A stretch of DNA of 64,000 nucleotides from a virus, in IMG/VR virus record IMGVR_UViG_3300021138_002011, positions 1 to 64,000 of that record; one strand, given 5' to 3'. Numbering within the stretch: position 1 is the stretch's first letter; each line of letters starts with the position of its first letter. The position numbers were made by a program, and so were the translations under genes. Of this stretch, positions 1 to 54,756 are shown one piece after another. The notes under the pieces were generated by a model, which saw only the letters and a program-made list of their open reading frames with translations, had not been told where the DNA came from and did not search any database.

Positions 1-99
1 AGTGGCGGTATCAGCAACCCAACCACCACCATATGAGTGTTGATGTGCTGCTACAGGTCCATTGCCGTCTTGAAAATCATACTTTGTTTCGTTAGTCAT
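1..99 (-). CDS. 5' part of a phage hypothetical protein (runs off window)
   Basis: ATG at 99 reads MTNETKYDFQDGNGPVAAHQHSYGGGWVADTAT, open to the window edge; not in the ORF track. Confidence 0.5.
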   Translation of the reverse strand, partial: MTNETKYDFQDGNGPVAAHQHSYGGGWVADTAT

Positions 100-100
100 A

Positions 101-316
101 TCACTTCTCCGGTAGATCGGAATAATAATCCGTAATGGCAGCAAGCAAACTCCCGATACCGAAGGCAATAACAAACATACTTAGAATAATAAAAGTGTAT
201 GTGCAAAAATATTCTAGACCGGAGTATTGTGGTGCTGATAGACCGGTCAAGAATGAAGTAACCCAGGCAGAGACCAAAACACTCCAAAAAATAATCCTAA
301 ACTTGAACTTGGTCAT
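101..316 (-). CDS. small membrane protein
   Basis: Two hydrophobic segments; start moved to MTKFKF. Confidence 0.45.
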   Translation of the reverse strand: MTKFKFRIIFWSVLVSAWVTSFLTGLSAPQYSGLEYFCTYTFIILSMFVIAFGIGSLLAAITDYYSDLPEK

Positions 317-34618: not shown

Positions 34619-35563
34619 ATGAAAGAATTATCCAACTGTTTATCTTCTAATGATCAATACAATGAGCGTACTCGCATCTTCATTGAAAAAGCAATAGAGG
34701 TCCATCAAAATCTTTATTCATATGACACTACAGTTTATGTCCATAGTCATAAGAAGGTTGAAATAACCTGTCGTATCCATGGGGTATTTTCGCAAGTAGC
34801 GTCTAATCATATACAAGGGTTCGGTTGCCGAATGTGTCAATATGCTGCAAAAAGAATGAACTATACCAAATATAGAACTATAGATGAGATAAAATCTGTA
34901 ATCAACAAAAAGTTTCCAATCTTTTTAATTTTGGATATACAAGGTATCAATTTCAAATCAAAGGTGCATCTAGAATGTCCGCATCATGGAAAGTTTCAGT
35001 GCACAGTTTCTGCGATCCATCATAGCTCACGATTTTTGTGCAAACGATGTTCTCATGAATATGCGAGCAAAAACGCAACTATGAAGCAGGATGAGTTTAT
35101 TAAAAGATGTGTTGAGAAACATGGCGATACGTATGATTACTCAAAAACGGTATATCGCCATTCTCATAAAAAAGTCATTTTCATTTGTAGAAAACACGGT
35201 GAGTTTGAGCAATATGTTAGCGCCCATTTGACTGGGTCAGGCTGTCCTCAGTGTCGATACCGGGTTTCAAAGAACTCTACAAAATGGTTAGACAGCTTGA
35301 ACAATCAGAATATCAAATGTGAACAACACGTTGAAGGTAAATTTGTGGATGGACTTGACCCATCCACGAATACGATATACGAATTTTATGGTGATTACTG
35401 GCACGGAAATCCAAAAGTGTTTGATACTCAACTCTACAATAAAAGAACCAAATGTACGATGGGAGAACTCTACCAAAGAACTGTTGATCGTAGATCGTAC
35501 CTGGAATCAAAAGGATACACTGTGATAGAGATATGGGAATCTGACTTCATTTGTGTAACTTGA
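34619..35563 (+). CDS. free-standing homing endonuclease (Vsr-like) with CxxHGxF repeats
   Basis: Three CxxHGxF..H...CxxC units; YEFYGDYWHG...GY.VIEIWESD; start 5 nt after TAAATA. Confidence 0.85.
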   Translation: MKELSNCLSSNDQYNERTRIFIEKAIEVHQNLYSYDTTVYVHSHKKVEITCRIHGVFSQVASNHIQGFGCRMCQYAAKRMNYTKYRTIDEIKSVINKKFPIFLILDIQGINFKSKVHLECPHHGKFQCTVSAIHHSSRFLCKRCSHEYASKNATMKQDEFIKRCVEKHGDTYDYSKTVYRHSHKKVIFICRKHGEFEQYVSAHLTGSGCPQCRYRVSKNSTKWLDSLNNQNIKCEQHVEGKFVDGLDPSTNTIYEFYGDYWHGNPKVFDTQLYNKRTKCTMGELYQRTVDRRSYLESKGYTVIEIWESDFICVT

Positions 35564-36275
35564 TCCACTCTTTTCTCTCATCAGCTTTGTTGTGATTAAA
35601 AATAAGGTCTAGCGCCTCTGACAATTTCCCATCATCCAACAAGGGCACTAGTTTTGGATTGGCAAGGCTATGTATCCAATCAGTTTCCTCAAGGCTACCA
35701 AGTCCTTTGGCACGTGTTGGTTTTGGTGCACCTTTCCAATCATCTGCATTATAAGTTTGATAGTCATCTGCATACCAATAATAACGCTTTTTACCTTTTT
35801 CTTGGATGATAAATGGAGTTTGAAAGACATAGAATACTGGAGGTAGTTTAGGATCGAACAGCTCGGGCCAATGAAGATAGAAAAAGTTTACCAGCAGTGC
35901 TGTAATGTTTGCGCCATCGGGATCTTGGTCTGCAGCTAGATATACATTGCCATAGCGCATGTCTTTTCGATTGGCTTTTTGTCCTAGACCTACTCCTACA
36001 GCAGTCATAATGTCTGCAATAATTTGATTATCAATGACAGTCTTGGGCAATTCTCCTCTAACATTAAGGATTTTACCTCGCAAAGGTAGTGCTCCGTGAA
36101 TTTCCGGATTTCTTACCGCAGCTACCATGCTCTTAGCACTATTGTGACTGAGTAGACCATTTGATAACACAAACGTTTCGTCATCTAATACTTGTATGTC
36201 GTACATGTTTGTTTTTCCTATCGGAGAGATATCTGCAATGTCTTCCATTAAAAACAAACTTTCATTAACATTCAT
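35547..36275 (-). CDS. topoisomerase large subunit C-fragment preceded by IntC
   Basis: 45-aa IntC ending SHN, then SAK...PLRGKILNV, DQDPDG, KGLGS (TOPRIM). Confidence 0.92.
   Translation of the reverse strand: MNVNESLFLMEDIADISPIGKTNMYDIQVLDDETFVLSNGLLSHNSAKSMVAAVRNPEIHGALPLRGKILNVRGELPKTVIDNQIIADIMTAVGVGLGQKANRKDMRYGNVYLAADQDPDGANITALLVNFFYLHWPELFDPKLPPVFYVFQTPFIIQEKGKKRYYWYADDYQTYNADDWKGAPKPTRAKGLGSLEETDWIHSLANPKLVPLLDDGKLSEALDLIFNHNKADERKEWIKLHK
36141..36275 (-). mobile_element. split intein C-fragment (topoisomerase)
   Basis: MYDIQV..DETFVLSNGLLSHN|S, blocks F/G. Confidence 0.9.
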
Positions 36276-37573
36276 TTTTGTATAGCTCCGTTTATAATAT
36301 CAGTTATTGTTTTTTTATAGTCTTTTGGATCAAGTATTATTGATCCAAATGTATGTTCTTTTTTCTTCATATGATCTTTGTATTCTTGCGAATCGCCGCC
36401 GGCAATTTCAATATAAATATTCTGCGATACCATCCATATATCATAAAATAAGCTACTATTTGGATATTTTCCATTAATCATAAAATCATCAAATTCCGTT
36501 AACCCTAGAGAACATAAATAATCATAGATTCTAATCTCATTAAAACTCTTGAGAATCGTTCCTTTATCTGTGTATGAATAGCAGCTATAATTATTATGAA
36601 ATATTTTACGAAGATTTTTTCTATAATCTGGCAGTATTTCTCTAATATTGTTTTCAATTTCAACTACAGACACTCCAAAAAAATCTTTTGCAACTTCGTA
36701 AAATTTATAGAATTTCAATTCTTTTTCTAAATTGAACATATGATATTGATACGTTTGACAGTCCTCAACTATGTTAGCAACTCGTTCGATGAATGTATCA
36801 AACAATTCGATATTATATTCATAATCATCTCTTTTAATATGTGCTCGTAAGTAATACTCAGTTCCTTTAATTTTTCCGTATTTTTTGATATAAGAAATAA
36901 GGCTGATATTTGTGCCGTCTTTCCATTTGTTATATTTTAGTAACCCTTCTTGTGCTCCATATTTTTTTATGAAATTGTCTAAAGTGATCGCCTTTCTTTG
37001 CTGAACAGCATTCCACATCGATTCTCTGTTGCTATCGATATATCCTTGATAGCTACGAGAATAATTGGCTTTATTAATCCACGCATTACGATCTTTATCA
37101 TTCTCTTCGAACCATTTCTTTGAACGACTTTGCGATTTCTTATAATCATTTATATTTTGATGATTTTCTTTATAGAATGGGCTGCTATTTCGACCATGAA
37201 TTTTTTCTAATGCTGCTGTTTCATTGATTCCATATGCTTTTCTTACAAATTCTATACTGTTTTTGTTTAATTTCTTACTTTCACAATTGTTTTTTGCAAA
37301 ACAAAGGAACTGCGCAGTGTGTCTGCGTCTCACTCCAGTTGGTATGATACAACCGTTGTTCACATAATGATTTATACCGATAATATCATGATTAAAATCA
37401 CCGCACCATGCACATCTTAATTCATGATGTTTTATATCCCATATCTTAAGATAACTGAATATTGATATATTTTTTCTTGTCAATGTTGCTCGTAACCGAA
37501 TACTTCTATCATGTTCAGTATTCTTTGATCGAAAACTGATATTCAATTTTTCACATGTAAATTCACATAACAT
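36272..37573 (-). CDS. putative homing endonuclease between the topoisomerase fragments
   Basis: AT-rich; (F/Y)IKKYG..G repeats; C-terminal KSFNE...YDI......IEIAG PD-(D/E)xK-like. Confidence 0.75.
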   Translation of the reverse strand: MLCEFTCEKLNISFRSKNTEHDRSIRLRATLTRKNISIFSYLKIWDIKHHELRCAWCGDFNHDIIGINHYVNNGCIIPTGVRRRHTAQFLCFAKNNCESKKLNKNSIEFVRKAYGINETAALEKIHGRNSSPFYKENHQNINDYKKSQSRSKKWFEENDKDRNAWINKANYSRSYQGYIDSNRESMWNAVQQRKAITLDNFIKKYGAQEGLLKYNKWKDGTNISLISYIKKYGKIKGTEYYLRAHIKRDDYEYNIELFDTFIERVANIVEDCQTYQYHMFNLEKELKFYKFYEVAKDFFGVSVVEIENNIREILPDYRKNLRKIFHNNYSCYSYTDKGTILKSFNEIRIYDYLCSLGLTEFDDFMINGKYPNSSLFYDIWMVSQNIYIEIAGGDSQEYKDHMKKKEHTFGSIILDPKDYKKTITDIINGAIQK

Positions 37574-37625
37574 GGTATTATATCGCCCTCTGTCATTATT
37601 GTTTATTTAGTATAGAGGGTGACAA

Positions 37626-38147
37626 TTATGATAAATTATGCGCTATTAATAAATGAATTTCAGAATCTAGATATTTGGTAGGAATTTTTTCAATAATACC
37701 AGAAGAAATATTTAACACTGAAAATAAATGGTTTTCAGAAATTATACATGTTTGATTGATTATACCATTCGTAAATGATACAGATTTATTAAACTTTTCA
37801 TCATCAAAGTCATCTACCCTTACAATTTCAAAAAACGAAGATTCCATGTTAATGATAGATGAGAGTAATTTATGTTGAGTTTTAACAATATCTTTGGCTT
37901 TCACCACTTCATACATATTGTTTTCAACATTGAAAACAGGCATTTTGTGATCTGTGCTTATTTTTATAACTTTACCAGTTGATGTTGTTATCGACACACC
38001 ATCAGTAATTTTTGCCTGCTTGTTACATATTGGTTTGATCGCGCCTGTGTGCGTTAAAACAAGATCTCCAAGATTTACGTCTTTTACTTTTTTATTGATA
38101 AATTCACCATCTTCGAAAATTGCGATTTGTGTGTCTTCAGCTATGCA
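37626..38147 (-). mobile_element. split intein N-fragment (topoisomerase), 173 aa
   Basis: CIAEDTQI (block A), LGDLVLT, STDH (block B) plus a second block-B-like SENH. Confidence 0.88.
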
Positions 38148-39443
38148 GTCGCCTTCACAGATTAGAAGAATGCACTTGCTGCGATCCTTGCCGTTTGCAT
38201 CCAGCAGCTTTGGAACCTTATTTCTCATAAGTTTGCGATTGGCTTTGGCTATATCCGCATCGTCGCGTTTTTGGGTACGAGCTGCACAACGTTTGTATAT
38301 TGCGTCAACCCATGTCTTGTGTGTGCGAAGTATGCTCTTAAATGTAATTTCGTTTTCAAGGCTTGTTTTGATGTAGCGATCAACTTCGTCGTTGATCAAC
38401 CGAGTTTTGCTTTGGCTATCAAAGTTAGGCGCATGCATTGTGGTTGTATTATAAATTAATAATCCGTCGGCAATGTCGCTGCGATTGGGGGCTAACCCTC
38501 TGCGCTTGCTTTCTCGTTCCATAGCTTTAAGCATGCCGCTAAAGAATAATCTTTTAAACGTGTCAATGTGTTGACCTCCGTTAAAAGCTGGGATGTCATT
38601 TACAGTACTGTGTACAAACTCGCCTTCGATTCCAAATTCAGGAACCAAATAATATGTGCTGGCAAACTTATCTTCGTTAATGCTGATAATTACAGGATCA
38701 CTATCGGCAAACATGGTTTTGTCAATGCTTTTACCTACAGTGACCTTTTCGCCGTTGAATGTAAATCGAATTTTAGGATGGTTGGCGGCTACCTCAAATA
38801 TACGAGATTTGACAAAAGATAAAGGAATCTTTGCGTTTGGAAATACAGTTGGGCTAAGTGAAAAATTGATTTCTGTACCGGATTTCATTGCGCTGGAAAA
38901 AATGCGTGGTTCACTGATATCCAAATCGGGCATCAGTTCAGACCCTTCTTTAAAGGTCTGTTGAAATCGTTTGCCAGCTCTCTTGATATCAATGACGAAT
39001 TCTTTTGAGCAACTTACTACAACTGATGCTCCAATACCATTTGTTCCGCGTACTTCTTCCCTCTCACCAAAATTGCGACCAGCACGAGCTTGGGTAAGTG
39101 CCATAGTTGCTTTGTGCATTTTTTCATTTTCGTCCCAGTCAATTGGAATGCCTCGGCCATCGTCGGCAACACTAAAGGTTAATGTTTTTGGATCGTATGT
39201 TACATCAATTTTACTACCATGTCCGTGGCCTACAACTTCGTCAAGACTGTTATCAAATATTTCTCTAAAAGCACAGTATGCAGCAGGCGTCCATGCAACG
39301 TTTTCGGCTACTAGTTTCTTTCCGTCCCAATTAATTACAGTCTGTGTATGTAAATTACGGCTGCCAAGATACATTTCGGTACGCAGGCGATGATGCTGGG
39401 TATCGGTTAGTTTGACAATTTCTTCGCTTGATTTTTTAGCCAT
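37626..39443 (-). CDS. topoisomerase large subunit N-fragment (GHKL ATPase) followed by IntN
   Basis: EIFDNSLDE, DDGRGIP, GTNGIG, FDSQSK, LICEGD|C. Confidence 0.93.
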   Translation of the reverse strand: MAKKSSEEIVKLTDTQHHRLRTEMYLGSRNLHTQTVINWDGKKLVAENVAWTPAAYCAFREIFDNSLDEVVGHGHGSKIDVTYDPKTLTFSVADDGRGIPIDWDENEKMHKATMALTQARAGRNFGEREEVRGTNGIGASVVVSCSKEFVIDIKRAGKRFQQTFKEGSELMPDLDISEPRIFSSAMKSGTEINFSLSPTVFPNAKIPLSFVKSRIFEVAANHPKIRFTFNGEKVTVGKSIDKTMFADSDPVIISINEDKFASTYYLVPEFGIEGEFVHSTVNDIPAFNGGQHIDTFKRLFFSGMLKAMERESKRRGLAPNRSDIADGLLIYNTTTMHAPNFDSQSKTRLINDEVDRYIKTSLENEITFKSILRTHKTWVDAIYKRCAARTQKRDDADIAKANRKLMRNKVPKLLDANGKDRSKCILLICEGDCIAEDTQIAIFEDGEFINKKVKDVNLGDLVLTHTGAIKPICNKQAKITDGVSITTSTGKVIKISTDHKMPVFNVENNMYEVVKAKDIVKTQHKLLSSIINMESSFFEIVRVDDFDDEKFNKSVSFTNGIINQTCIISENHLFSVLNISSGIIEKIPTKYLDSEIHLLIAHNLS

Positions 39444-44339: not shown

Positions 44340-45029
44340 TTATCTATCGATGTGCTTGGTTTGTATCAACCTTCCGTCAATGGTTTTGGCAATCCAAACA
44401 CTGTTAGGTGGTGGAACTGCGCCTGCATGTTCGTAATGCCACGCCCATTGAGAATGGTAGTTCACGGTTGGTGTTTTTATATGTAATCGAGATACGCTTG
44501 GAATAGCAATCGATGCCCAAAAATGCCTGTCGCTCCACAGCCTATGTTCCGGTGCTGTTATCCAATTGGTCAACTGATGGAGGATTGATTTCGTGATGAA
44601 CAGACAATTTGTGTCACAAAACGTGCTACCGTCGCTTTCAAAATCATCCACGTACAAAAATCGTCCTGCTGTGGTGCAAATATTGCGGGTGGCCGTAACA
44701 ACATCGTGCGTCCCAATGGCTGCTGCCATTGTTTCAAGATGATTTGCAAGATAGGTGTTATCGGCATCCAAGAATGCTACTGCATCAAAATTCCTGCTGA
44801 ACGCGGATATTGCCGCCAGCGCCCTAGGTGTTGCTCCAGCGTCATCATGACACCTTGGCAGCACCATGTGTTCGACATCGGGCAATGTTCTAACCATAGG
44901 ATGCGGCTCGCCGTCGGCTATCATCATATGCACATGATTCTTGTAGGTTTGACCCTGTACAGAGTTGTGACACCTTTTCAGGGTATCGGCGCTTTCTCTA
45001 TGGTATGGTGTGATAACTGCTATTTTCAT
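44340..45029 (-). CDS. GT2 glycosyltransferase
   Basis: VITP, SV.GQT, IADG, FLDADN, DTNC, SDR. Confidence 0.85.
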   Translation of the reverse strand: MKIAVITPYHRESADTLKRCHNSVQGQTYKNHVHMMIADGEPHPMVRTLPDVEHMVLPRCHDDAGATPRALAAISAFSRNFDAVAFLDADNTYLANHLETMAAAIGTHDVVTATRNICTTAGRFLYVDDFESDGSTFCDTNCLFITKSILHQLTNWITAPEHRLWSDRHFWASIAIPSVSRLHIKTPTVNYHSQWAWHYEHAGAVPPPNSVWIAKTIDGRLIQTKHIDR

Positions 45030-46129
45030 CAGATCTGTGGTAGCTCGGAATAATCTATTACCTCCGACATAATTCCTATTACATAGTTAGTGCTTTCGGT
45101 TTCCTGGAGAGCTGATTGCTTGTTGCTGGTGTTGCTGTGCTTATTGAACCAAGGTATTGGTGTGGTCTTTGGAGCAGGCAATGTGTACTTTATACCGATT
45201 TCCTTTAGTGCAGCAGCAGCAGTAAAATCCATAAAGTCCTTGAGTATTTGAGAATTAAGTCCGATTACAGGACCAAATTTGAACAAATAATCTGCCCAGT
45301 CTTTTTCTTCTTGTATAACATCCATGTAGATTTGATAAACTTCGGCTGTGCATTCTTGTTTGATTTCTGCAAAACGCGAGTCATCTTTTGCACACTGATT
45401 AATGAGGTATGCAGTCCAGTCTCTATGCAACAGCTCGTCTTGCAAAATAAGACTGATGATGTTACCGTTGCCAATGAAAATTTTGTTCTCTACCATTGCA
45501 AGACTGGTTGCAAACGATACCATAAATCGCAGTGCTTCGAGTGCATAGCTAGTATGTAATGCTAACCATATCGACTTAACATGGTCCTTTTCATCAACGT
45601 CAACGCCAAGTTCTTTTTTGCAATTAATGACGTGCAGGTCGTCGTAGTATTTGCCAATCTGTGCAGCCATTTCAATGATTGGTGCTGTCTCGTGAATTTT
45701 ATTAAATTCATCCTTTGGTACATTATAGATGTTTCTAATGATATGACTATAGCTTTTTGAATGTAGATTTGTTTCAAAGAAGCTCCAGTTGCTAACCAAC
45801 GACTCAAGTTCTGGAATTGAAATAACAGGACTAAATATCTGTGCCGGTGCACGACCTTGCAAACTGTCTAATGCTGTTTGTCGAAGTAGATTGCTGGTAA
45901 AAATATGTCTAACAGTTTCGCTGGCATTTTTGAAATCGCCAGCGTCTTTGGTTAGGCTGATTTCTTCAGGAATCCAAAAAAATCCTCTTGCGTTCTCTTC
46001 GAACCTGGCTATCTTTGGATATCTAAATTCTTCAAATCGTTGAACTGTAACTGGCCCGGCAGGATCTAAAAACATTTTACGGGCGAGATAGTCTGTTTTT
46101 TTAGATAAATCGTATTGTGCGATCGCCAT
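45029..46129 (-). CDS. nrdB: class Ia ribonucleotide reductase beta subunit
   Basis: FWIPEE, QTALDSLQGR, ETNLHSKSY, LEALRFMVSF, DELLH. Confidence 0.95.
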   Translation of the reverse strand: MAIAQYDLSKKTDYLARKMFLDPAGPVTVQRFEEFRYPKIARFEENARGFFWIPEEISLTKDAGDFKNASETVRHIFTSNLLRQTALDSLQGRAPAQIFSPVISIPELESLVSNWSFFETNLHSKSYSHIIRNIYNVPKDEFNKIHETAPIIEMAAQIGKYYDDLHVINCKKELGVDVDEKDHVKSIWLALHTSYALEALRFMVSFATSLAMVENKIFIGNGNIISLILQDELLHRDWTAYLINQCAKDDSRFAEIKQECTAEVYQIYMDVIQEEKDWADYLFKFGPVIGLNSQILKDFMDFTAAAALKEIGIKYTLPAPKTTPIPWFNKHSNTSNKQSALQETESTNYVIGIMSEVIDYSELPQI

Positions 46130-46168
46130 GATTATATCTCTTTCTTAACTGTTATTTTGTTATTATTA

Positions 46169-47257
46169 TTATAAAACGCAAGATTCGCAATGCTCTTCGT
46201 CATCGTAATTGATAGATTCAATCATAGCTGGAGTATTTTCTGCATCCATTTTGCTACCTTGTTTTTCAACAAGTGAGTAATATATGGTTTTCAATCCCCA
46301 TACGTGTGCCTGCATTAGGTTCTTCGCAATTAATGTAGTCGGCACTTTACGATCTGGAAAGTGTTTTGGTGAATAGAAGGTATTGGTACTGATAGATTGA
46401 TCTATATACGCTGCTAATACAGCAGCAGTTTTTAAGTAGCTATCACAGTTTTTTTGATCCCACAGCAATTGATACTTACTTTTTAGCTTTTGATATTCTG
46501 GCACAACTTGTATAAATGACCCAGCTTTTGATTCTTTAACACTAATCAAACTCATCGGTATTTCAATTCCGTTTGTTGAGTTAATGACAACACTTGAACT
46601 TTCAACTGGTGCGATTGCCATTAGTGTTGAATTACGAACACCATATTGTTTCATATTAGCACGAAGATTTTCCCAATCTAACTCTGGTGTAAAATCTGCA
46701 AGTTCATTAACACCAGTTGCACGCAATTCCCAAGGGAACACTCCTTGTCCGTAACGTGTTTGACCACTATGCAAACATGCGCCGCGTTCTTTTGCTAATT
46801 CGACGGTGGCTTCTGTAAGATAGAATGCTTGATGTTCCATCCAAGATTTAACTTCTTGTAGAGCGTCTTTTTCACCATATTTGAAGTTGCGTTTTGCATG
46901 CCAATATGCAAGGTTTGTGACACCAATTCCAAGTGGTTGAATCTCATCATTACTAAGCTTGCTTTGTATGCTTAGGAAATCTTGATAATCAAGTATATTG
47001 CATAAGCTACGTTGTAGAATTCTGCAAGCACGTCGCATGTCTTCTGGGTTTCTAAATGCGCCCCAATTGATCGACCCCAGAGTACACAACGATATGCGAC
47101 CGGTATCATCGTCAAGTCGCTTAAATGATTTGGTCGGCAAAAGTATCTCGCAATTATGGACTAATATATTATTAGCAAAAAAGGAGTGTGTTCTATCTAC
47201 TGTGATATCATATACCGCTTCTGGTTTCGATATTTTTATTTTTCTAATTTTAATCAT
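46169..47257 (-). CDS. nrdA: NrdA fragment 3 (IntC2 + C-terminal extein)
   Basis: 35-aa IntC ending VHN, then CEILLP..., LCTLGS, GLKTIYY, terminal CESC. Confidence 0.93.
   Translation of the reverse strand: MIKIRKIKISKPEAVYDITVDRTHSFFANNILVHNCEILLPTKSFKRLDDDTGRISLCTLGSINWGAFRNPEDMRRACRILQRSLCNILDYQDFLSIQSKLSNDEIQPLGIGVTNLAYWHAKRNFKYGEKDALQEVKSWMEHQAFYLTEATVELAKERGACLHSGQTRYGQGVFPWELRATGVNELADFTPELDWENLRANMKQYGVRNSTLMAIAPVESSSVVINSTNGIEIPMSLISVKESKAGSFIQVVPEYQKLKSKYQLLWDQKNCDSYLKTAAVLAAYIDQSISTNTFYSPKHFPDRKVPTTLIAKNLMQAHVWGLKTIYYSLVEKQGSKMDAENTPAMIESINYDDEEHCESCVL
47153..47257 (-). mobile_element. split intein 2 C-fragment
   Basis: MIKIRKIK...VYDITV..THSFFANNILVHN|C. Confidence 0.92.
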
Positions 47258-48222
47258 AATATACGTCCATGTTTATATGTTATATTTTCTTTCAAGAATT
47301 GATCTAATTGGTCTGCATTAAGTCTAACATTCTTAACTCCGTTTGTTACCCATCTATATATCGATGATGCAGATGACAGCTTCTTCTTTTGCTCATCACC
47401 CCTATAGTAAGGATTATAACTTACTACTGCTAATCCTGCATTAATAAGTGTATTATTCACTTCTGATACTAGTTCTTCACGACCATTAGTAAATCTATTT
47501 TTTATAATCGTAACACTAACATTCAACACATTCTTCAATGCATCATCCATCTCTTTACGAAGTATATAATTACCATACCTGTTATTTGTAATCACATAGT
47601 TTACAATAACATCTATAACCATCTGCCTAGTAATATCAGGTTTAGCATTTGAGTTATTCACACCAATTGATCTTGCCGACTGTAACTTAGACTGCTCTTT
47701 AGTATTCTTACGACCCGCGTTCCAATGTACCCATTCCTTTGATATTACTTTCTCGTGATTTGTTGGTACCCTGCCTATCTTCTCACCAGTGATAGAATCT
47801 TTTACCAACATAGTATTGACCATAGACTCGCGAATACCTTCTATAGCTAACTTACGATATTTCTCATATTTTTTTGAGCGTGATAAGTTATACCATTCTT
47901 CCCGCGGATGCGATGACTTGTCTAATAACGTAAAGAACCATACTAACGATTTTTTCGCTGACTGTTCATATCGTGTCCCACTGTAAATTTTTGTTAATAG
48001 CAAATGCGACAAGAAATGCTCGCGAATTGTTAATAATACCAAATTGTTCTTATCATTACAATCCCCATCTAAGTTTCCGATTGGGCCTGTTCTACCTCTG
48101 CGATTTTTAAACATAAAGGTAGGGATGATATGATGCAACTCATAATAAATCTTTCCACCTTTCACTCTATTTTCTTCTTTAGCACGATTTATAATATTTT
48201 GATAAATTTTTCTATAGTTCAT
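47254..48222 (-). CDS. HNH homing endonuclease between nrdA fragments 2 and 3
   Basis: MNY.KIY..II, ELHHIIP, NLVLLT.REHF..H.LL; own ATAAATA promoter. Confidence 0.88.
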   Translation of the reverse strand: MNYRKIYQNIINRAKEENRVKGGKIYYELHHIIPTFMFKNRRGRTGPIGNLDGDCNDKNNLVLLTIREHFLSHLLLTKIYSGTRYEQSAKKSLVWFFTLLDKSSHPREEWYNLSRSKKYEKYRKLAIEGIRESMVNTMLVKDSITGEKIGRVPTNHEKVISKEWVHWNAGRKNTKEQSKLQSARSIGVNNSNAKPDITRQMVIDVIVNYVITNNRYGNYILRKEMDDALKNVLNVSVTIIKNRFTNGREELVSEVNNTLINAGLAVVSYNPYYRGDEQKKKLSSASSIYRWVTNGVKNVRLNADQLDQFLKENITYKHGRIL

Positions 48223-48279
48223 AGTGTTATTTCCTTTCTATTATTTATGTAAGTAATAGTATTTCTGTAAATAACGCTA

Positions 48280-48597
48280 CTATTTTATCAGTAACTCGTC
48301 AGTCTCCTCTAAATCTTGTGCTTCTACCCATCCTCTGTTAGTGGTGAATATCTTGTGATCAACCGTGCAACGTATGATTTGCCCCGATTCTGTTTCAATC
48401 TCTACTAATTCATCTACCTTTTTGGTTAGTATAGCATTTGAAATATTCTCCCATACTATTTTTTTGCCGTCCCACGACTTCGCTAATACAGTATCGTCAT
48501 AATACCCGTTAGTCCAGCTTTCTGTGAAGGTAGCAATATTTGTCTTAAGAATTTGTCCTGCATACTGTATCTCTATTTCTGTCTCACCTGTTAAACA
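48280..48597 (-). mobile_element. split intein 2 N-fragment, 105 aa
   Basis: CLTGETEI, CTVDHKIFT.NRGWVEA.DL...D. Confidence 0.92.
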
Positions 48598-49422
48598 ACA
48601 AAGATTGCTTTGATATATGGTATGATATTCTGGATCAAACGGGCCTTGATTCTGAACGTTGTCAATAAACACAAGATAGATACGTCCAGTATCTGTGCGT
48701 TCTTTAAGTATGCCACCTTTGAACACTTCTTCTGCACTCATAGTTTTTGTTCTTAGGTCTGTGCGTTTTTCATATTGAACATACAGTTCTTCAAACAGTG
48801 CAGTGTTTTTATAAAACGCTTCATAGAGATCTGGAACTTCGTTTGGATCAAAGAATGTAATGTTTTCTTGGTTCTTAAATCTACGCCAGAAAAATGCATT
48901 TAGAACTACACCATAGTCCATGTGACGAACTCTAGTCTCTTCTGTACCTTGGTTATTTTTCAACACAATTAGATCATCAAACTGGTGATGCCATAATGGG
49001 TAGAACACTGTTGCACTATTGTGGGCCAATAATAATTTGTCTGGTTCCATCCCTGCATAATAATTTTCATGTTCATCAATGCTAAAATCGGCATATTGAG
49101 TTGATACGTTAGGAGAAGTTACTTCTTTAACTTTATCTTTTTTGTTGATAACAGACACTACATAATCTCCTGTAGTAATATCACCACCCTTTACATATTT
49201 GATTTTTCCAAATTCATTGATTGCAGTAGGATGTGTGTCGCTCGTAATTAATTTAGCATCCGATGTTGATGTAATTTTTACTTGGTGTTCATGTGGAACT
49301 ATCGGTCTCATGACATTTAATACTTTACGATATACATCCGTTTGTGTTTCAATATCACAAGATAGTACCAAATCTCCCAATTTTACTTCATCAATTTTAA
49401 CTCTGTTCGATAAAAATTTCAT
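48280..49422 (-). CDS. nrdA: NrdA fragment 2 (IntC1 + 140-aa extein + IntN2)
   Basis: AHN|SATVFYPLWH...ERTDTGRIY...QSNLC|CLTGET; AAGGA RBS. Confidence 0.93.
   Translation of the reverse strand: MKFLSNRVKIDEVKLGDLVLSCDIETQTDVYRKVLNVMRPIVPHEHQVKITSTSDAKLITSDTHPTAINEFGKIKYVKGGDITTGDYVVSVINKKDKVKEVTSPNVSTQYADFSIDEHENYYAGMEPDKLLLAHNSATVFYPLWHHQFDDLIVLKNNQGTEETRVRHMDYGVVLNAFFWRRFKNQENITFFDPNEVPDLYEAFYKNTALFEELYVQYEKRTDLRTKTMSAEEVFKGGILKERTDTGRIYLVFIDNVQNQGPFDPEYHTIYQSNLCCLTGETEIEIQYAGQILKTNIATFTESWTNGYYDDTVLAKSWDGKKIVWENISNAILTKKVDELVEIETESGQIIRCTVDHKIFTTNRGWVEAQDLEETDELLIK
49018..49422 (-). mobile_element. split intein 1 C-fragment, 135 aa (atypical, contains block B)
   Basis: KIDEVKLGDLVLS, TSDTHP, YADFSIDEHENYY, AHN|S. 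Confidence 0.88.
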
Positions 49423-50326
49423 TTATTCTGTCCTTCAAGTCGGATGATATTTCTTTGTCGTCTAATATTGTTTTATAACCAAGAACCTCTTCGATTGCAA
49501 CAATACAATATTGACCTTTTCTGCAATTTTCTTTTTTTGGTATTAGTTGTAAATTTTGATAACTTCCTATAATTAATGGATGTATCTTGTTGACAAATCC
49601 GCCATATTTGGAAAATTTGTGATCAACAGCGTATCCATTCTTACCATAAATTATACCTAATTTGTTTTTTTCCGGATCGATGATATTTCCATATACAGCA
49701 ATCGATATTTTGGTAGCTGTTCTTACTGCATCACAATAACTGTCGTAATTATCATAACTAAATTTCTTCAAAACAGGCCCGTGTTCTGTCCGACTATTTT
49801 TAAACCAACGAATTAATTTTGCCTCGTGTTTAACAGTAGATGCCCGCGATAAAAAAGTTTCTTGACGATTTTTAATTTTAGATTGGTATTCATTCCATTT
49901 GTCTTTGCCGATTGTTTCTCCAAACCTCGTTATATATGATTCCAATGAAGGGAGACGACCTATATCAGACCTATATTGTTGTGCTCGTATTTCAGCATCT
50001 TCTAACGAATACCCTTTAGATACCCAGTGATTTGAATTTGACGGGGTTGTTTTTTGTTTTTTTCGTGTTTTTCGTTTTTCATTAATTAAAAGAACTGCTT
50101 CTTCTTCAGTTTTACCCCGAGATATATAATATTCAATTGACCACGGGCTATTTTTTGCCCTATCTTTTCGAAGGTTTTTGTCGATTTTGTTAAACTCTTC
50201 GCCACACTTGAATTCTTTGAGATACTCATTTAAATTCATTCTGTTATGTCTCATAGTCAGATGTCGTTGTAACTGGCTCACGTTAGCCGAGCAAATTTTG
50301 CAAATATGCATCTCTTTCATCATCAC
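49397..50326 (-). CDS. putative HNH-type endonuclease between nrdA fragments 1 and 2
   Basis: C2H2-like N-terminus, YITRFG..G..KW, VDHKFS...NLQLIP..EN..KG. Confidence 0.8.
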   Translation of the reverse strand: MMMKEMHICKICSANVSQLQRHLTMRHNRMNLNEYLKEFKCGEEFNKIDKNLRKDRAKNSPWSIEYYISRGKTEEEAVLLINEKRKTRKKQKTTPSNSNHWVSKGYSLEDAEIRAQQYRSDIGRLPSLESYITRFGETIGKDKWNEYQSKIKNRQETFLSRASTVKHEAKLIRWFKNSRTEHGPVLKKFSYDNYDSYCDAVRTATKISIAVYGNIIDPEKNKLGIIYGKNGYAVDHKFSKYGGFVNKIHPLIIGSYQNLQLIPKKENCRKGQYCIVAIEEVLGYKTILDDKEISSDLKDRINEIFIEQS

Positions 50327-50468
50327 TTCCCATATAGGCTAAAATAGTTAGCACATCAGTTATATTTATCACTTTGTCATCTTTTTTAATTATGTCACCT
50401 TGATAATAATTTTTGCCGTTAAATTCAAATCCAGTTAATTTGTCTACATATGAGTCTATGTGTACACA
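50283..50468 (-). mobile_element. split intein 1 N-fragment, 61 aa (block A only)
   Basis: CVHIDSYV follows the extein junction; no TxxH. Confidence 0.8.
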
Positions 50469-51401
50469 TGCGTTCCTGATTCCGCCCTGACTGCATGATC
50501 TTAGATCGCCAAACCATTTCTTTAAAAATGGAATCATACCAGTGTGCATGATTTCACCGCCTCTGATAGGACTTCCCAATGGTCGCAATCTGCCAATTTC
50601 CAACCCAATGCCAGCACGTTTGCTAGCATATTTTGCCATCATTTCTCCTGATGCAAAGATACTGTCTAGGTCATCGTCACTACGTATAAGCACACACGAA
50701 CTAAACTGTTTGGTTGGTGTCCCTAGTCCTGCTAATACAGGCGTGGCAAGAGTAAACAAGCCCTCTGAAGCAGACTGATAGTATTCTTTGATGTATCGCA
50801 TACGAGCATTATTTGGTTCCTCTTTATGAAAAACCGTAGCCGCAGCTATCATATACCGTATTTGTGGTGTTTCATAAATATTTTTCGTTGCACGATTTCG
50901 AACTAGATACTTTTCGATCAACTGCTCAATTGCTGCGTAACTATACTGTTCATCTTTTTCATGATCCAGCATTTCATTCATTTTGTTCCAGTCATCTTCA
51001 GTATACCAATCAAGAAGATCTGCAGTGTATAATCCCGTATCTACATTTTTTTTAACAACTGAATATAGATGAGGAACTTCATACGTACCGTATACGTCTT
51101 TTCGTAGCATACTTAAACGTTGCTTTCCTGCAACGTACTGATAGTTGGTATGCCCAATTCCTGGGTTGATGTCTACGTCAATTAAATCAACTATAGCTCG
51201 CAGTGTTATACCATCAATTTCAACAGTTGATATTCCGTTATAAAAATGCGGCTGCGCTTTGATTTCGATCATTGATTGGCTAACGTCTGCTATGTTTTTG
51301 CAAACTTTGGCAATTTGTGCTTGCCATTTACCAATGTTAAGTAACTCTCGGTGTCCGTCGCGCTTGGTGACGTAAATTTCTCCCTGTCTTTGGGCGGCCA
51401 T
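50283..51401 (-). CDS. nrdA: NrdA fragment 1 (ATP cone + N-extein + short IntN1)
   Basis: VTKRDG, ETPQ, TPVLAG, QFSSCVL, CSQGGIRNA|CVHID. Confidence 0.93.
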   Translation of the reverse strand: MAAQRQGEIYVTKRDGHRELLNIGKWQAQIAKVCKNIADVSQSMIEIKAQPHFYNGISTVEIDGITLRAIVDLIDVDINPGIGHTNYQYVAGKQRLSMLRKDVYGTYEVPHLYSVVKKNVDTGLYTADLLDWYTEDDWNKMNEMLDHEKDEQYSYAAIEQLIEKYLVRNRATKNIYETPQIRYMIAAATVFHKEEPNNARMRYIKEYYQSASEGLFTLATPVLAGLGTPTKQFSSCVLIRSDDDLDSIFASGEMMAKYASKRAGIGLEIGRLRPLGSPIRGGEIMHTGMIPFLKKWFGDLRSCSQGGIRNACVHIDSYVDKLTGFEFNGKNYYQGDIIKKDDKVINITDVLTILAYMGSDDERDAYLQNLLG

Positions 51402-51487
51402 GTTTTGTCCTCTTTCAAATATTTTGATAACTGTTATGAGCAGCTAAGCTCGAGAGCTGAGTATTTACGCGTCATAAAGTCGCATCG

Positions 51488-52012
51488 TTATTTTTTTATT
51501 ATATTACCAACCGATGCAATAGTCCTAGATTTTAATAGGAAATGATGGTTGTCTTGGTAATCATATATCTGCTGTATGTTGTATGTTTTTGTAACTGTTT
51601 GATTATCAATTACTTTTTGATACTCTAAATTTAATAACCATCTGTTATCAACACTCAAAATAATTCTCTGTATTGCGCGAATTTGATCGCTTACAAGAAT
51701 AAGTTGTAGTCTATTGCCGATCCATCTAGCATCTTGTGACAACAGCAACGTATAAAACATTCCTACTGCAACGGCACTTTCGTCAAATATGTTATTGTGT
51801 ATAAAAGTCCAAGGATCGGGCCAAGATTTCGGCTCATCCCAGTCAAGTGTTCTCACTGATATTGGAGCATTACTCCAAAACTGTGTAACTAATTCCAAAT
51901 GTTGTTTATCCGACAAACCATCTGTTAAATTTTTGCGTAATTCTTTCCAACAACTCATAAAAGATTTAGAATTATCATTCATAAACTTAATATGTTCCAG
52001 AAAATCTTCCAT
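51488..52012 (-). CDS. conserved phage hypothetical protein
   Basis: WPDPW...A.GMFYTL motif. Confidence 0.65.
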   Translation of the reverse strand: MEDFLEHIKFMNDNSKSFMSCWKELRKNLTDGLSDKQHLELVTQFWSNAPISVRTLDWDEPKSWPDPWTFIHNNIFDESAVAVGMFYTLLLSQDARWIGNRLQLILVSDQIRAIQRIILSVDNRWLLNLEYQKVIDNQTVTKTYNIQQIYDYQDNHHFLLKSRTIASVGNIIKK

Positions 52013-52158
52013 ATGTCACCTATTGTATAGTAATAACTTAATGCACTATTTTTATGAGTGAATCAATTAATTGTTAGTGGTTGGATTCTAAACGACTTTA
52101 GACCAGGATCTACAGTTTTTGACAGCATTGACAACAATTTATAGATGTGAAAAAGGTG

Positions 52159-54756
52159 TCATGTTACGTTTACCAACGATGTTGCATCGGCTGTAGGAGT
52201 ATCTATACCGTTGCCTGTATGCGAACCTACGGTACCGATGATCAACGACAACTGGACAGAGTCGTAACTATAGGTTGTGTTATTGGTTGATACAGCACCA
52301 TTTGCGTTTAGTACAGCGCTGCCTTTGGCCAAATAACCAGATCCGGTTGAATGGTCACTTTCTGCCAAGTAGCAGTTAAGATATCCTTTGTTTGTTGACG
52401 CATAATTTGCAGTCTCTGTGGTTGTGCCATTATACGACCCGGTGGAGGATGTAGCATCTACAGAACCGCCATTTAATGCCAAATAGCCATATTGCAAGTT
52501 GTGAGAACCATTTGTGTTCATGGCCCACATACTGCCGTTAGTCTCGGCTGCAAACCCCGCTATATAGTTGTAAATGGCAAATCCATTGTTGGCAACTATG
52601 CTGCCCATTTCTGCCAAAAATCCATATCCAAGATTTTGTGAACTATCTCCACAATAGGCAGCATGAGCGTATCTTGCTTCAATTGCACCGCCGTTAAATG
52701 CGTGGAAACCTACGTCGCCTGCATCTGCAACATATGGTCCAGTTGATCCGTTATTTTGGCAATAGATATGACCACCAAGTTCTGCGCGCATACCGTAATA
52801 AAATTTATTGATATAAATGTTAGCCCCTACAACAATATTGCCACCTGCGTAGGCCCAGATTCCAAAACCATATGGATTTATTCCAGCATTCCAGGTATAA
52901 GTCCCTGTCCATCCATCTAGTGCGTTTATTGTAAAGCCATCTAGCAATCCAAGACTTTTGTCGTTTTTAATCAAGAATGCTGGGCTATAGTTGGCCTGAT
53001 AAAACTGAAGAACCACGTTTGCCGGCGTGGTTGTGTTGCCAATAATTTGTATTTGCGCACCTTGAGGATGTGTTATTTCAATTGGAACAGGCGATCCCGA
53101 GCTACCATATGTATATGTTCCATCTGCTACTTGTATTGTAACAACAGCACCGTTGTTAATCACTCTGTCATTTAGGTAATTAAGAGCTACTTTTATATCA
53201 GAAAACTGTGCAGGTACATGTAGTGTGCATGATGCACTTACATCGCCTATAGGTATTAGGCCACCGGCATAGCTAAAACTGCCAGGTCCATATAGCTGTG
53301 TTCCATAACTTAATGCGGAACTTGTTACAAGATATATAGTCTGTGGCGCATAAACTAGCGACCCGGTAGCTGCTGCTGCAACAAATGCCGCAGTATCGTC
53401 AGTGGTGCCGTCTCCAACAGCTCCGTAATCTTTAACATTTACAACATCGGCAAATCTGTTGGCCAGGGTTCTGGCCACAGCGGTACCTGTAGTAATAACA
53501 GTTGCAGAACTGGCATTACTGGAGGAATTGAATACTCCACTGTAACCTGAATATCCACTTGTACCCGATACACCCGTTAAATTAGTTTGCTGCGCGTCAA
53601 CAATTATATTTGTTGTTCCACTATCTATCACGCCTGGTGCAGTAGAAAATACGTCGCCCATACTGCCATTGAGTACAGATGCTGTGCCCCAATAAATGCT
53701 TTTAACGGATGTTGGTGTTCCTACGCTTTTAAATGTGTTGCCAATGCTTGTAACGCCCGGATTACTGCTGGCATCGCCTACATAAATTCCGTAATTGCTA
53801 ATGCTATAAAATTTTGTTTGTGTAACAGTTGTGTACTCAGGTCCGTTGTGTACAGGTGTTAAGCCAGCTACAATGCCTCTATACAGTTGATGTAGCGTAC
53901 AACGACTTAGGGTTGTGTATGCAACAGGGTCATTCATTAAAACGGCATTGGTAAACCCTTGTATATCACAATCTACAAGCTGCAAATCATGAGTGAATAC
54001 TGCATTGCCTATGCTGCTGCAGGTAAACGCAGAATCTGTTCCGGCAGAATTGCCGGCTACCCATCCACCTATTGCATTTACTCTCTCGTATCTAATGTGC
54101 GAGTATCTGGTTGAGTGCACCGCGCTAATTTGTTGTGAATTTGTACTGATAGTGATGTCACGTATGTGTATCTTGGTCGGAAGAACTGCGCCATTTAAAC
54201 CGATATTGGCTCCAGTTTGTCCGAGGCTGTCTACTGTTTCTAGCATATATTGCATAGATGTATCTGCCGCAGCAAGAATTGTTGTTCCGTTGTTGCCGTC
54301 ACCTATTATGCTCAAATACGGATACAGCAACAGTGTACTGTTTATTAGATAAGTACCTGCTGGAAAAAAGATCGAAACCGCAGTGTTGTTGGAAGCAGGG
54401 TATCCTTTAAGAAGTTCTGAAATGGCAGCATTAATCGCAGGGGCGTCGTCTGTTATGCCGTCGCCTGTTGCACCAAAGTCTTTAATGCTAGCAATATCGT
54501 CTAATTTTGCATGCAGCGTGCGCGAGATAGCAGATGAAAGATTTATGCCATTAGCACTATAAATTGTAGTTATCAATTCGTCGTTTTGGCTGTAGGCAGT
54601 TAACACCTCGGTGTTTGCTCCATACCCATTAGAATTGCCTATAAACAACTGCCGCGTATCAAGGCACCAACCAAACTCGCCTTCTGCTAGAGAAGCTGGT
54701 AAATCAGCATATAAACCTCTACGGTTTTGTAGTCTTGCAATTGTTTGGATGGCCAT
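52159..54756 (-). CDS. tail fibre/baseplate protein with Mtd-N-like head and two beta-helix (pectate-lyase-3-like) domains
   Basis: QNRRG...LP.LAEGEFGW..DT..LFIG; SIKDFGATGDG.TDD and NVKDYGAVGDG.TDD; SGYSGYSG linker. Confidence 0.8.
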   Translation of the reverse strand: MAIQTIARLQNRRGLYADLPASLAEGEFGWCLDTRQLFIGNSNGYGANTEVLTAYSQNDELITTIYSANGINLSSAISRTLHAKLDDIASIKDFGATGDGITDDAPAINAAISELLKGYPASNNTAVSIFFPAGTYLINSTLLLYPYLSIIGDGNNGTTILAAADTSMQYMLETVDSLGQTGANIGLNGAVLPTKIHIRDITISTNSQQISAVHSTRYSHIRYERVNAIGGWVAGNSAGTDSAFTCSSIGNAVFTHDLQLVDCDIQGFTNAVLMNDPVAYTTLSRCTLHQLYRGIVAGLTPVHNGPEYTTVTQTKFYSISNYGIYVGDASSNPGVTSIGNTFKSVGTPTSVKSIYWGTASVLNGSMGDVFSTAPGVIDSGTTNIIVDAQQTNLTGVSGTSGYSGYSGVFNSSSNASSATVITTGTAVARTLANRFADVVNVKDYGAVGDGTTDDTAAFVAAAATGSLVYAPQTIYLVTSSALSYGTQLYGPGSFSYAGGLIPIGDVSASCTLHVPAQFSDIKVALNYLNDRVINNGAVVTIQVADGTYTYGSSGSPVPIEITHPQGAQIQIIGNTTTPANVVLQFYQANYSPAFLIKNDKSLGLLDGFTINALDGWTGTYTWNAGINPYGFGIWAYAGGNIVVGANIYINKFYYGMRAELGGHIYCQNNGSTGPYVADAGDVGFHAFNGGAIEARYAHAAYCGDSSQNLGYGFLAEMGSIVANNGFAIYNYIAGFAAETNGSMWAMNTNGSHNLQYGYLALNGGSVDATSSTGSYNGTTTETANYASTNKGYLNCYLAESDHSTGSGYLAKGSAVLNANGAVSTNNTTYSYDSVQLSLIIGTVGSHTGNGIDTPTADATSLVNVT

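Follow-up and report, generated by a model that had tools for sequence, protein, structure and literature searches.

An nrdA gene in three pieces with two split inteins in an uncultured freshwater phage: a candidate for natural tandem protein trans-splicing

The DNA considered here, referred to throughout as the window, is a stretch of 64,000 nucleotides (nt) from an uncultured freshwater phage (IMG/VR record IMGVR_UViG_3300021138_002011, positions 1–64,000), in which a class Ia nrdA gene, encoding the large subunit of ribonucleotide reductase (RNR), lies in three separate pieces. Five successive open reading frames (ORFs), named F1, HEG1, F2, HEG2 and F3, occupy the minus strand at 46169–51401. 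F1 (51401–50283) encodes 372 amino acids (aa), a 311-aa extein followed by the 61-aa N-terminal half of a first intein (IntN1), while F2 (49422–48280, 380 aa) consists of the 135-aa C-terminal half of that intein (IntC1), a 140-aa extein and the 105-aa N-terminal half of a second intein (IntN2). F3 (47257–46169, 362 aa) begins with the 35-aa C-terminal half of the second intein (IntC2) and continues into a 327-aa extein. HEG1 (50326–49397, 309 aa) lies between the halves of intein 1 and HEG2 (48222–47254, 322 aa) between those of intein 2. An earlier reading made from the sequence alone had proposed three nrdA pieces with exteins of these lengths, summing to 778 aa (311 + 140 + 327), and the ORFs and part boundaries bear this out. 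The arrangement is very probably that of an nrdA gene whose products are joined by two trans-splicing reactions into one NrdA.

The N-extein (50469..51401, F1 residues 1–311) carries the ATP-cone, the all-alpha domain and the start of the barrel (PF03477, PF00317 and PF02867), and is followed by IntN1 (50286..50468), which starts with CVHIDS and is closed by a stop codon at 50283–50285. IntC1 (49018..49422) ends in LLLAHN, followed by a +1 serine, and leads into the middle extein (48598..49017; SATVFYPLWH...YQSNLC) and then into IntN2 (48283..48597), which starts with CLTGET and has its stop codon at 48280–48282. IntC2 (47153..47257) ends in ILVHN, followed by a +1 cysteine, and the C-extein (46172..47152) runs from CEILLP to the C-terminal CESC tail, with the stop codon at 46169–46171. 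The calculated masses of F1, F2 and F3 are 42.2, 44.0 and 41.3 kDa, respectively.

Placed end to end, the three exteins cover a whole NrdA. On the class Ia NrdA equivalog model NF006578 (761 positions), F1 matches positions 4–301, F2 301–440 and F3 440–757, with neither gap nor overlap; the scores are 323.9, 163.9 and 292.8 bits, none of which reaches the whole-protein cut-off of 813 alone, because each piece is a fragment. The Pfam domains come in the expected order of ATP-cone, all-alpha domain and barrel, and the PF02867 match in F3 extends to profile position 522 of 523. In the translations, the active-site motifs are FSSCVLI in F1, QSNLC, with which the middle extein closes, and CEI, LCTLGS, IYYS and CESC in F3. 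The active-site cysteines, the C-terminal cysteine pair and the equivalents of E. coli N437/E441 and Y730/Y731 are all present. The middle extein aligns to residues 300–440 of E. coli R1 and its last residue is therefore the thiyl-radical Cys439; by the same offset, the site of intein 1 lies between the equivalents of Gly300 and Ala301. The E. coli numbering of C225, C439 and C462 is that of Crona et al. (PMC3045599).

The product of splicing would be 778 aa long with a calculated mass of 89.1 kDa, rather than the approximately 88 kDa of the sequence-only reading. Its predicted joints (marked by hyphens) are ...QGGIRNA-SATVFYPLWH... and ...QSNLC-CEILLP..., and both occur as exact uninterrupted sequence in 56 of the 80 related loci described below, where the empty alleles read ...LRSCSQGGIRNASATVFYPIW... 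and ...QSNLCCEILLPTK.... As the predicted joints are identical to these intein-free alleles, removing the inteins in silico restores the uninterrupted protein of the relatives, including the Cys-Cys pair at the second site, just as had been proposed for QGGIRNA-SATVFYPLWH and SNLC-CEI; and with 56 of 80 loci carrying both joint sequences uninterrupted, the layout is not due to chance.

Intein 2 is NrdJ-1-like and split at the canonical DnaE/NrdJ-1 position. It has the residue set of a canonical class 1 intein, with Cys1 (in CLTGET), block B RCTVDH, VYDITVDRTHSFFAN, the terminal ILVHN and the +1 Cys all kept. In an alignment of 15 middle pieces (F2 and 14 others that are 49–72% identical to it), the C276 column, which is the Cys1 of this intein, and C352, T353 and H356 are invariant in all 15. 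Pfam Intein_splicing matches both the C-terminal end of F2 and the N-terminal end of F3, IntC2 corresponding to profile positions 122–155, and TIGR01445 (F2 residues 276–360) and TIGR01443 (F3 residues 15–36) score above their cut-offs. Among solved structures, IntN2 matches the NrdJ-1 intein (PDB 8ubs, E 3.2e-9), and residues 276–380 of an AlphaFold2 model of F2 align to residues 1–97 of Npu DnaE IntN (Z 11.4). The two halves also tile the second inteins of two RNR large subunits, P0159 (1116 aa) and P0134 (1049 aa), in which the two sites of the window are each occupied by a contiguous intein (z 9.7–20.8; for IntC2 against the C-terminal ends of the contiguous inteins, z 9.7 and 14.9). The net charge of IntN2 is -10 and that of IntC2 residues 1–15 is +4, and such an acidic-N/basic-C polarity has been described for NrdJ-1 by Dassa et al. 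2009 (PMC2677866).

Intein 1 is of a different kind. Its splicing residues are likewise those of a canonical class 1 intein and are all kept: Cys1 (in CVHIDS), block B TSDTHP, block F YADFSIDEHENYYAG, the terminal LLLAHN and the +1 Ser. None of the 15 aligned middle pieces departs from H64, P65, Y110, D112, H134, N135 or S136, and each of the 12 F1-type ends that were aligned has Cys1. Residues 8–124 of IntC1 match positions 9–123 of the 137 in Pfam PT-HINT. A word search for a contiguous form of intein 1 in long proteins scored none of 172 candidates; contiguous relatives were found later by a full HMMER scan with IntC1 over 1.84 billion representatives, which gave 79 matches at E <= 0.001. 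IntN1 residues 1–36 align without a gap to positions 1–36 of the first intein of P0159 (z 7.3, 200 shuffles) and IntC1 residues 5–135 cover positions 38–170 of the same intein (z 19.7); IntC1 is also significant against all four other contiguous relatives (z 22.7–33.5).

The structural evidence for intein 1 comes from the model of F2, which has a mean pLDDT of 68 and a pTM of 0.37, with IntC1 and IntN2 scoring 70–95, and which was compared with solved structures by VIA-align, a program that superposes structures and gives the residue ranges that match. Model residues 3–136 match complete inteins and hedgehog HINT domains from residue 11–14 to their ends (Z 12–15.7, root-mean-square deviation (rmsd) about 2 A), as for the Ssp DnaB mini-intein, where the match covers 12..155 with 122 aligned residues (Z 14.7, rmsd 1.8 A); the same residues also align with gp41-1 (11..125), NrdJ-1 (14..149) and VidaL (19..143). 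The modelled IntC1 thus corresponds to whole inteins minus their first 10–13 residues. IntC1 holds nearly the whole HINT fold and intein 1 is split after the first strand and a family-specific hairpin, an atypical and very early site that the sequence-only reading had not pointed out. IntN1 lacks the T-x-x-H motif and blocks B, F and G all lie on IntC1, which is the short-N-half, long-C-half arrangement of the AceL-TerL/VidaL kind.

AceL-TerL, GOS-TerL and VidaL are atypically split inteins with an IntN of 16–25 aa. The modelled IntC1 aligns with VidaL (6vgv) from chain residue 19 onwards (Z 12.7, rmsd 2.9 A, 117 aligned), so IntC1 starts at about the VidaL split point and shares with it the possession of blocks B, F and G. 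In contrast to that kind, IntN1 is 61 aa long and has an additional hairpin as well as a tail of 25 conserved residues, and its host protein is NrdA and not a terminase or another of the hosts of those inteins. In a set of solved structures that includes VidaL, none is a significant sequence relative of IntC1; the best, the KlbA intein, has E 0.02.

The tail (IntN1 residues 37–61, 50286–50360) has the consensus ...VLxTLAYMGxDxERExYLQNLF, and when 11 variants were aligned, all 61 residues of IntN1, tail included, were found conserved in the 10 that reach the end. The last 14 codons of IntN1 double as the beginning of the HEG1 reading frame, whose likely ribosome-binding site falls in the codons that precede them; the conservation of the tail may in part be due to this overlap. 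An origin of the tail as a duplicate of the start of IntC1, which a MAFFT fragment alignment had hinted at, found no support in pairwise alignment with shuffles, and a by-eye resemblance to dockerins had no counterpart among Pfam matches at E <= 0.1.

At each break there is a stop codon and a separate start, and the halves tile contiguous inteins without overlap, as expected of split inteins. That two split inteins join the three genes, as the sequence-only reading held, is upheld at the level of sequence: canonical residues are kept in both inteins, and for each of them the two halves tile a contiguous intein that occupies the same site in a relative. Double trans-splicing is supported by sequence, by comparison and by modelled structure.

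The genes lying within the two inteins differ in how readily they can be named. HEG2 matches PHROG 655, ‘homing endonuclease’ (E 2.8e-25), with a weak Pfam match to the AHH/HNH superfamily, in agreement with the HNH gene that had been assigned to the space between F2 and F3; its PDB matches are only Q-beta coat proteins, which were taken as chance. For HEG1, the idea of an endonuclease gene between F1 and F2 holds as far as there is an ORF in the right place with an HNH-like motif visible by eye, but not as far as family assignment, as no Pfam or NCBIfam family matches above threshold and there are only sub-cut-off zinc-finger matches. HEG1 does match PHROG 5104 (E 4.8e-7), whose function is not annotated. 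Its Atlas neighbours are viral hypothetical proteins, and HNH families among them appear only below 0.9, which is a lead only. With an N-terminal C2H2-like CxxC...HxxxxH and a C-terminal DH...N...N seen by eye, HEG1 looks HNH-like. Each intein therefore has a free-standing gene between its halves on the same strand, as in the fractured genes discussed below, the nuclease nature of HEG1 being judged by eye and from these leads. Four 91-nt folds 5' of the endonuclease genes gave no significant hairpin of the kind described by Dassa et al. 2009 (z -1.66, 0.85, 0.99 and 1.55).

HEG1 shares 44 nt with F1 and 26 nt with F2, in different frames, a 57-nt non-coding gap lies 5' of HEG2, and HEG2 ends where F3 begins, stop and start codon overlapping in ATGA. 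AAGGA is found nine bases 5' of the F2 ATG and AAAGGAA upstream of the HEG2 ATG. Directly 3' of F3, and outside the fracture, lies nrdB (45029..46129, minus strand), which encodes the 366-aa small subunit (PF00268, E 8.2e-41) and is followed by a 229-aa ORF and a glutaredoxin-like CPYC protein. A single transcript probably covers all five genes and nrdB, for which the lack of terminator-like sites between them on the minus strand is weak evidence. The count of promoter-like sites is uninformative (27 observed, 30.2 expected).

Related loci show how the two sites are occupied in nature. An IMG/VR scan with F2 returned 384 matching stretches, 383 of which encode a relative, and the best 80 were classified by the flanks of the middle extein; these were picked by their likeness to F2 and the proportions that follow are not population frequencies. 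Both sites are empty in 56 loci, site 1 alone is occupied in seven, site 2 alone in six, and both in four (L001, L002, L003 and L006). A further site, termed site 0, lies eight residues upstream of site 1 and is occupied together with site 2 in L010 and alone in L018; the remaining five loci are cut upstream and have site 2 empty. Across L001–L009, the unit of IntN1, HEG1 and IntC1 is 98.3–100% identical to the window in nucleotide sequence, compared to 77–88% for the N-extein and 78–84% for the middle extein of the same loci, and that the cassette is so much more identical than its exteins indicates its recent lateral movement. In two further loci (L017 and L021), intein 1 is 68% identical inside an NrdA that is only 44–47% identical. 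Such patterns are what would be expected of homing, or of recombination between alleles that carries the cassette along. Alleles with no intein, with one and with both are found together in the same lakes, so that homing and its cost can be studied in the wild.

The middle piece itself, with an IntC, an extein and an IntN in one protein, has many counterparts. A search for homologues of F2 gave 1884 matches at E <= 0.001 among 3281 candidates, and the best 120 were examined; 34 of them are 377–398 aa long, with at least 97% coverage of F2 and both RNR-barrel and intein Pfam domains, and all 14 clusters aligned from these 34 show the IntC–extein–IntN layout. The layout is common in phage metagenomes. 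Counting the window, five of the 15 aligned middle pieces use site 1, and the other ten use site 0 (...THN-SQGGIRNASAT...) with a different long IntC. The second intein also varies in position: in four of the 15 (P0007, P0019, P0096 and P0116) it lies one residue earlier, at ...SNL-C..., the NrdA site of Dassa 2009, and in the other 11 it follows the thiyl Cys, at the NrdJ site. Among the 79 relatives of IntC1, 35 (e.g. P0123, P0124, P0131 and P0152) have a match that begins no more than 17 residues from the start of the protein, these proteins being 116–1083 aa long; a free-standing long IntC would be expected at this position, which suggests that atypically split inteins with a long IntC are frequent in many host proteins. 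In other relatives the match is internal, in proteins of RNR length.

Even more fragmented genes can be found. In L001 (2433–9535), and also in L002, nrdA is in four genes, with sites 0 and 1 both occupied: a 19-aa IntN0 follows ...LRSC at site 0, accompanied by a 387-aa ORF, and between IntC0 and IntN1, in a protein of 204 aa, there are only the eight extein residues SQGGIRNA. Five clusters are made up of proteins of this type, and one of these clusters occurs on 16 contigs. Run X11 contains a variant of the window sequence that is longer by 1600 letters, inserted at site 0 (50493/50505). Site 2 of L001 holds a contiguous intein. The last break in L001 (7260–8620) has a 44-aa C-terminal tail and a new N-terminus, with neither Cys1 nor His-Asn, and looks like a non-covalent split of the type known from Aeromonas phage Aeh1 rather than an intein; an HNH gene lies inside it on the opposite strand.

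The closest described systems are the fractured genes of Dassa, London, Stoddard, Schueler-Furman and Pietrokovski (Dassa et al. 2009, PMC2677866), who describe 26–27 loci as ‘fractured in two’; among these are NrdA-1 to NrdA-7 and NrdJ-1/2, which come from ocean metagenomes. Two-piece intein-fractured genes had been named as known by the sequence-only reading, and these are indeed such a set. The window resembles them in that a split intein interrupts a conserved enzyme of nucleotide metabolism and that a free-standing endonuclease gene, read from the same strand, separates the intein halves. Seven of their NrdA loci are interrupted just before the thiyl Cys and the two NrdJ loci one residue after it, and site 2 of the window is the same insertion point as in the latter. 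In contrast to the loci described there, the window has two fractures, three pieces and a middle IntC–extein–IntN protein, and its intein 1 is at a different site and atypically split. Their endonucleases are GIY-YIG or Vsr-like, whereas HEG2 belongs to the HNH-type PHROG 655 and HEG1 has no family, and 27–51 nt of non-coding sequence precede their endonucleases, whereas HEG1 overlaps both neighbours. From the sequence, the window locus appears akin to these fractured genes and new in its second fracture and middle piece.

Other comparisons are with engineered and cultured systems. Engineered tandem trans-splicing (PMC7210297 and PMC7090010) likewise uses a middle fragment flanked by an IntC and an IntN and two orthogonal inteins, in systems designed in the laboratory; the window, in contrast, is natural, polymorphic in wild phages and carried by homing elements. 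A 2023 preprint (10.1101/2023.01.30.526203) describes engineered three-piece inteins, not three-piece exteins. Crona et al. 2011 (PMC3045599) report that among 1200 nrdA sequences none is split outside Aeh1 and metagenomic cases. Dwivedi et al. 2013 (PMC3653736) list 16 phages whose RNR genes are split, and two split inteins occur in none of them; passages of Iyer et al. 2021 (PMC7824862) contain one mention of phage inteins. No natural three-piece trans-splicing was found in the literature, only engineered cases (subscription journals and supplementary tables lay outside the scope). The impression of the sequence-only reading that the layout is not a known one thus stands as regards the literature, but not as regards metagenomes, where it is common.

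Among 50,697 deposited phage records, four cover at least 80% of F2: Campylobacter phage IBB_35 (two copies) and Vibrio phages SUMAE and VPALA. IBB_35 and SUMAE have inteins at the same two nrdA sites as the window, and no free-standing middle piece was found in the records of IBB_35 (two copies) or SUMAE. Like the window, IBB_35 has a split intein at site 2 (...NLC-CLAGDT... and ...VHN-CEI...); it differs in having a contiguous intein at site 1 and a third contiguous intein, which leaves two pieces, and SUMAE differs in being a single 1147-aa ORF with contiguous inteins. The annotation of the IBB_35 nrdA goes no further than ‘similar to’ and three inteins. The sequence can be read as a pair of intact ORFs that a split intein at the thiyl-Cys site joins, together with the two contiguous inteins, and the gene may well be functional, despite the 2013 view of it as degenerating.

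How the locus may have arisen and how it may work can be set out as follows. A phage class Ia nrdA would have been invaded at two conserved sites by two unrelated elements, each an intein with a homing endonuclease, and each intein would then have been split by its free-standing endonuclease gene, turning one gene into three. F1, F2 and F3 would be translated separately, IntN1 would pair with IntC1 and IntN2 with IntC2, and two canonical class 1 trans-splicing reactions would join the exteins into the 778-aa, 89.1-kDa NrdA, with joints as in the intein-free alleles. In intein 1, the N-half would supply only the Cys1 strand and hairpin (about 36 aa) and the 25-aa tail, and the C-half the rest of the HINT fold, while the endonucleases would spread the cassettes by homing. 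The layout of F2 raises the question of whether its own two ends might react together. IntC1 and IntN2 each hold block B and most of the HINT fold, for which reason they should not react, and the difference in split topology and the lack of sequence similarity between the inteins would keep them apart; the best local match between IntC1 and IntN2 covers 35 residues at E 0.018 and is not significant.

A number of observations weigh against double splicing. IntN1 is significant against one of the five contiguous relatives only, the other four giving z -0.0 to 0.9, its tail is without a counterpart in the contiguous relatives and is unexplained, and IntN1 and the N-terminal end of IntC1 are both slightly acidic, showing no charge complementarity like that of intein 2. 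The AlphaFold2 model of F2 is mediocre overall and the middle extein is poorly modelled, the Shine-Dalgarno sequence 5' of F3 is weak, and of the listed sequencing runs with this DNA none is recorded as RNA. In favour are Ka/Ks ratios (Nei-Gojobori) of 0.14 for IntN1 (against L017), 0.10–0.12 for IntC1, 0.23–0.26 for IntN2 and 0.14–0.37 for IntC2, by which both inteins appear to be under purifying selection; these ratios are rough, and show only that amino-acid change is restrained, because synonymous divergence (dS) is saturated, exceeding 1.1 in all intein-half comparisons except that of IntC2 with L001 (0.86).

To these must be added the precedent of phage Aeh1, whose split NrdA is fully active without splicing (PMC3045599). 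By analogy, the three polypeptides of the window might assemble non-covalently into an active enzyme, with the intein halves serving only as docking tags, and the extra break of L001 after the start of its C-extein, which carries tails without intein residues, lends this some substance. The likeness to Aeh1 nrdA-a/mobE/nrdA-b is considerable, as there too a class Ia nrdA is cut near the active site by an HNH-type gene and the parts are translated separately; Aeh1, however, is split into two pieces that lack intein residues and are brought together non-covalently by short tails (PMC3045599), compared to three pieces with complete splicing motifs here. Docking would not require invariant splicing residues, yet every one is kept, and they are invariant across middle pieces only 49–72% identical to F2. 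The breaks also fall inside the conserved ...SCSQGGIRNASAT... and beside the thiyl cysteine, where approximately 140–196 extra residues would be hard to fit. Docking alone is therefore disfavoured, and we regard it as unlikely.

Very unlikely, in our view, is a decaying nrdA wrecked by mobile elements, with the phage using the enzyme of its host. In Campylobacter phages, the nrdA with its many inteins was taken for a degenerating gene by Dwivedi et al. 2013 (PMC3653736), and several relatives of the window have still more insertions. In the window, however, all three exteins are open and full-length with an end-to-end match to the NrdA model, their Ka/Ks against relatives is 0.016–0.09 where dS could be estimated, and nrdB lies directly downstream; moreover, the same arrangement recurs with zero mismatches in independent samples and the middle piece is conserved over many clusters.

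The sequence-only reading had itself pointed to assembly error and RNA-level splicing among the ways in which it could fail. Twenty listed runs from 17 named studies contain at least half of the sampled words of the stretch, and four of the runs may be its source; four runs not marked as possible sources were used for a check on assembled contigs, not reads. Record 20 of run X6 (48658–50723) spans the middle extein, IntC1, HEG1 and IntN1 into the N-extein, and record 9 of run X5 (47013–48363) spans the F3 start, HEG2 and the F2 end, both with zero mismatches, and the remaining stretch is tiled by other mismatch-free contigs. With Rfam, no family, hence no intron model, was found in 45000–52500 at E <= 1, and nine related loci gave one tRNA only at the gathering score. 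An artefact (chimeric assembly, or frameshift errors in endonuclease-containing inteins) or joining of the pieces as RNA is the least probable alternative and largely refuted, for although the window comes from a metagenome-type assembly and the HEG1 frame overlaps both neighbours, as frameshift errors in one long ORF would, the breaks are bridged by contigs of independent runs, seven IMG/VR loci, at 98–100% identity, repeat the placing of IntN1, HEG1 and IntC1 in three frames that differ from one another, intein 2 has its non-coding gap and separate start, and no intron model matches.

If trans-splicing is accepted as the best account, a wider reading can be put forward tentatively, one that we would place just short of evenly balanced. 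Freshwater phages may run natural multi-step ligation cascades, with nrdA as a landing pad for at least three distinct and freely combining split-intein/endonuclease cassettes (at C-SQGG, NA-SAT and the thiyl Cys), giving two-, three- and four-piece enzymes that include the 204-aa protein with its eight-residue extein; different split points would prevent cross-reaction and cyclisation, and the 25-aa tail of IntN1 would be a new docking element for a one-strand intein half. Split inteins are a main tool of protein semisynthesis, and ligation of three fragments needs pairs that do not cross-react. The window locus and its relatives would be the first natural IntC–extein–IntN middle pieces found, and would supply pre-tested orthogonal pairs that act within the same cell and on the same essential enzyme, one of them an atypical Cys1/+1-Ser intein with a catalytic N-part of about 36 residues. 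They would also show to what extent homing elements can break an essential phage gene that is still kept.

Elsewhere in the window, on the minus strand (35547–39443), the translations point to a type II topoisomerase/GyrB-like gene that carries a further split intein. The N-piece (39443–37626) ends in ...LICEGD-CIAEDT... with a long IntN, a 433-aa ORF (37573–36272) lies between the halves, and the IntC piece (36275–35547) has an IntC ending in ...LLSHN-SAKS.... With this third split intein in the window, at least three intein pairs would have to stay orthogonal in one infected cell.

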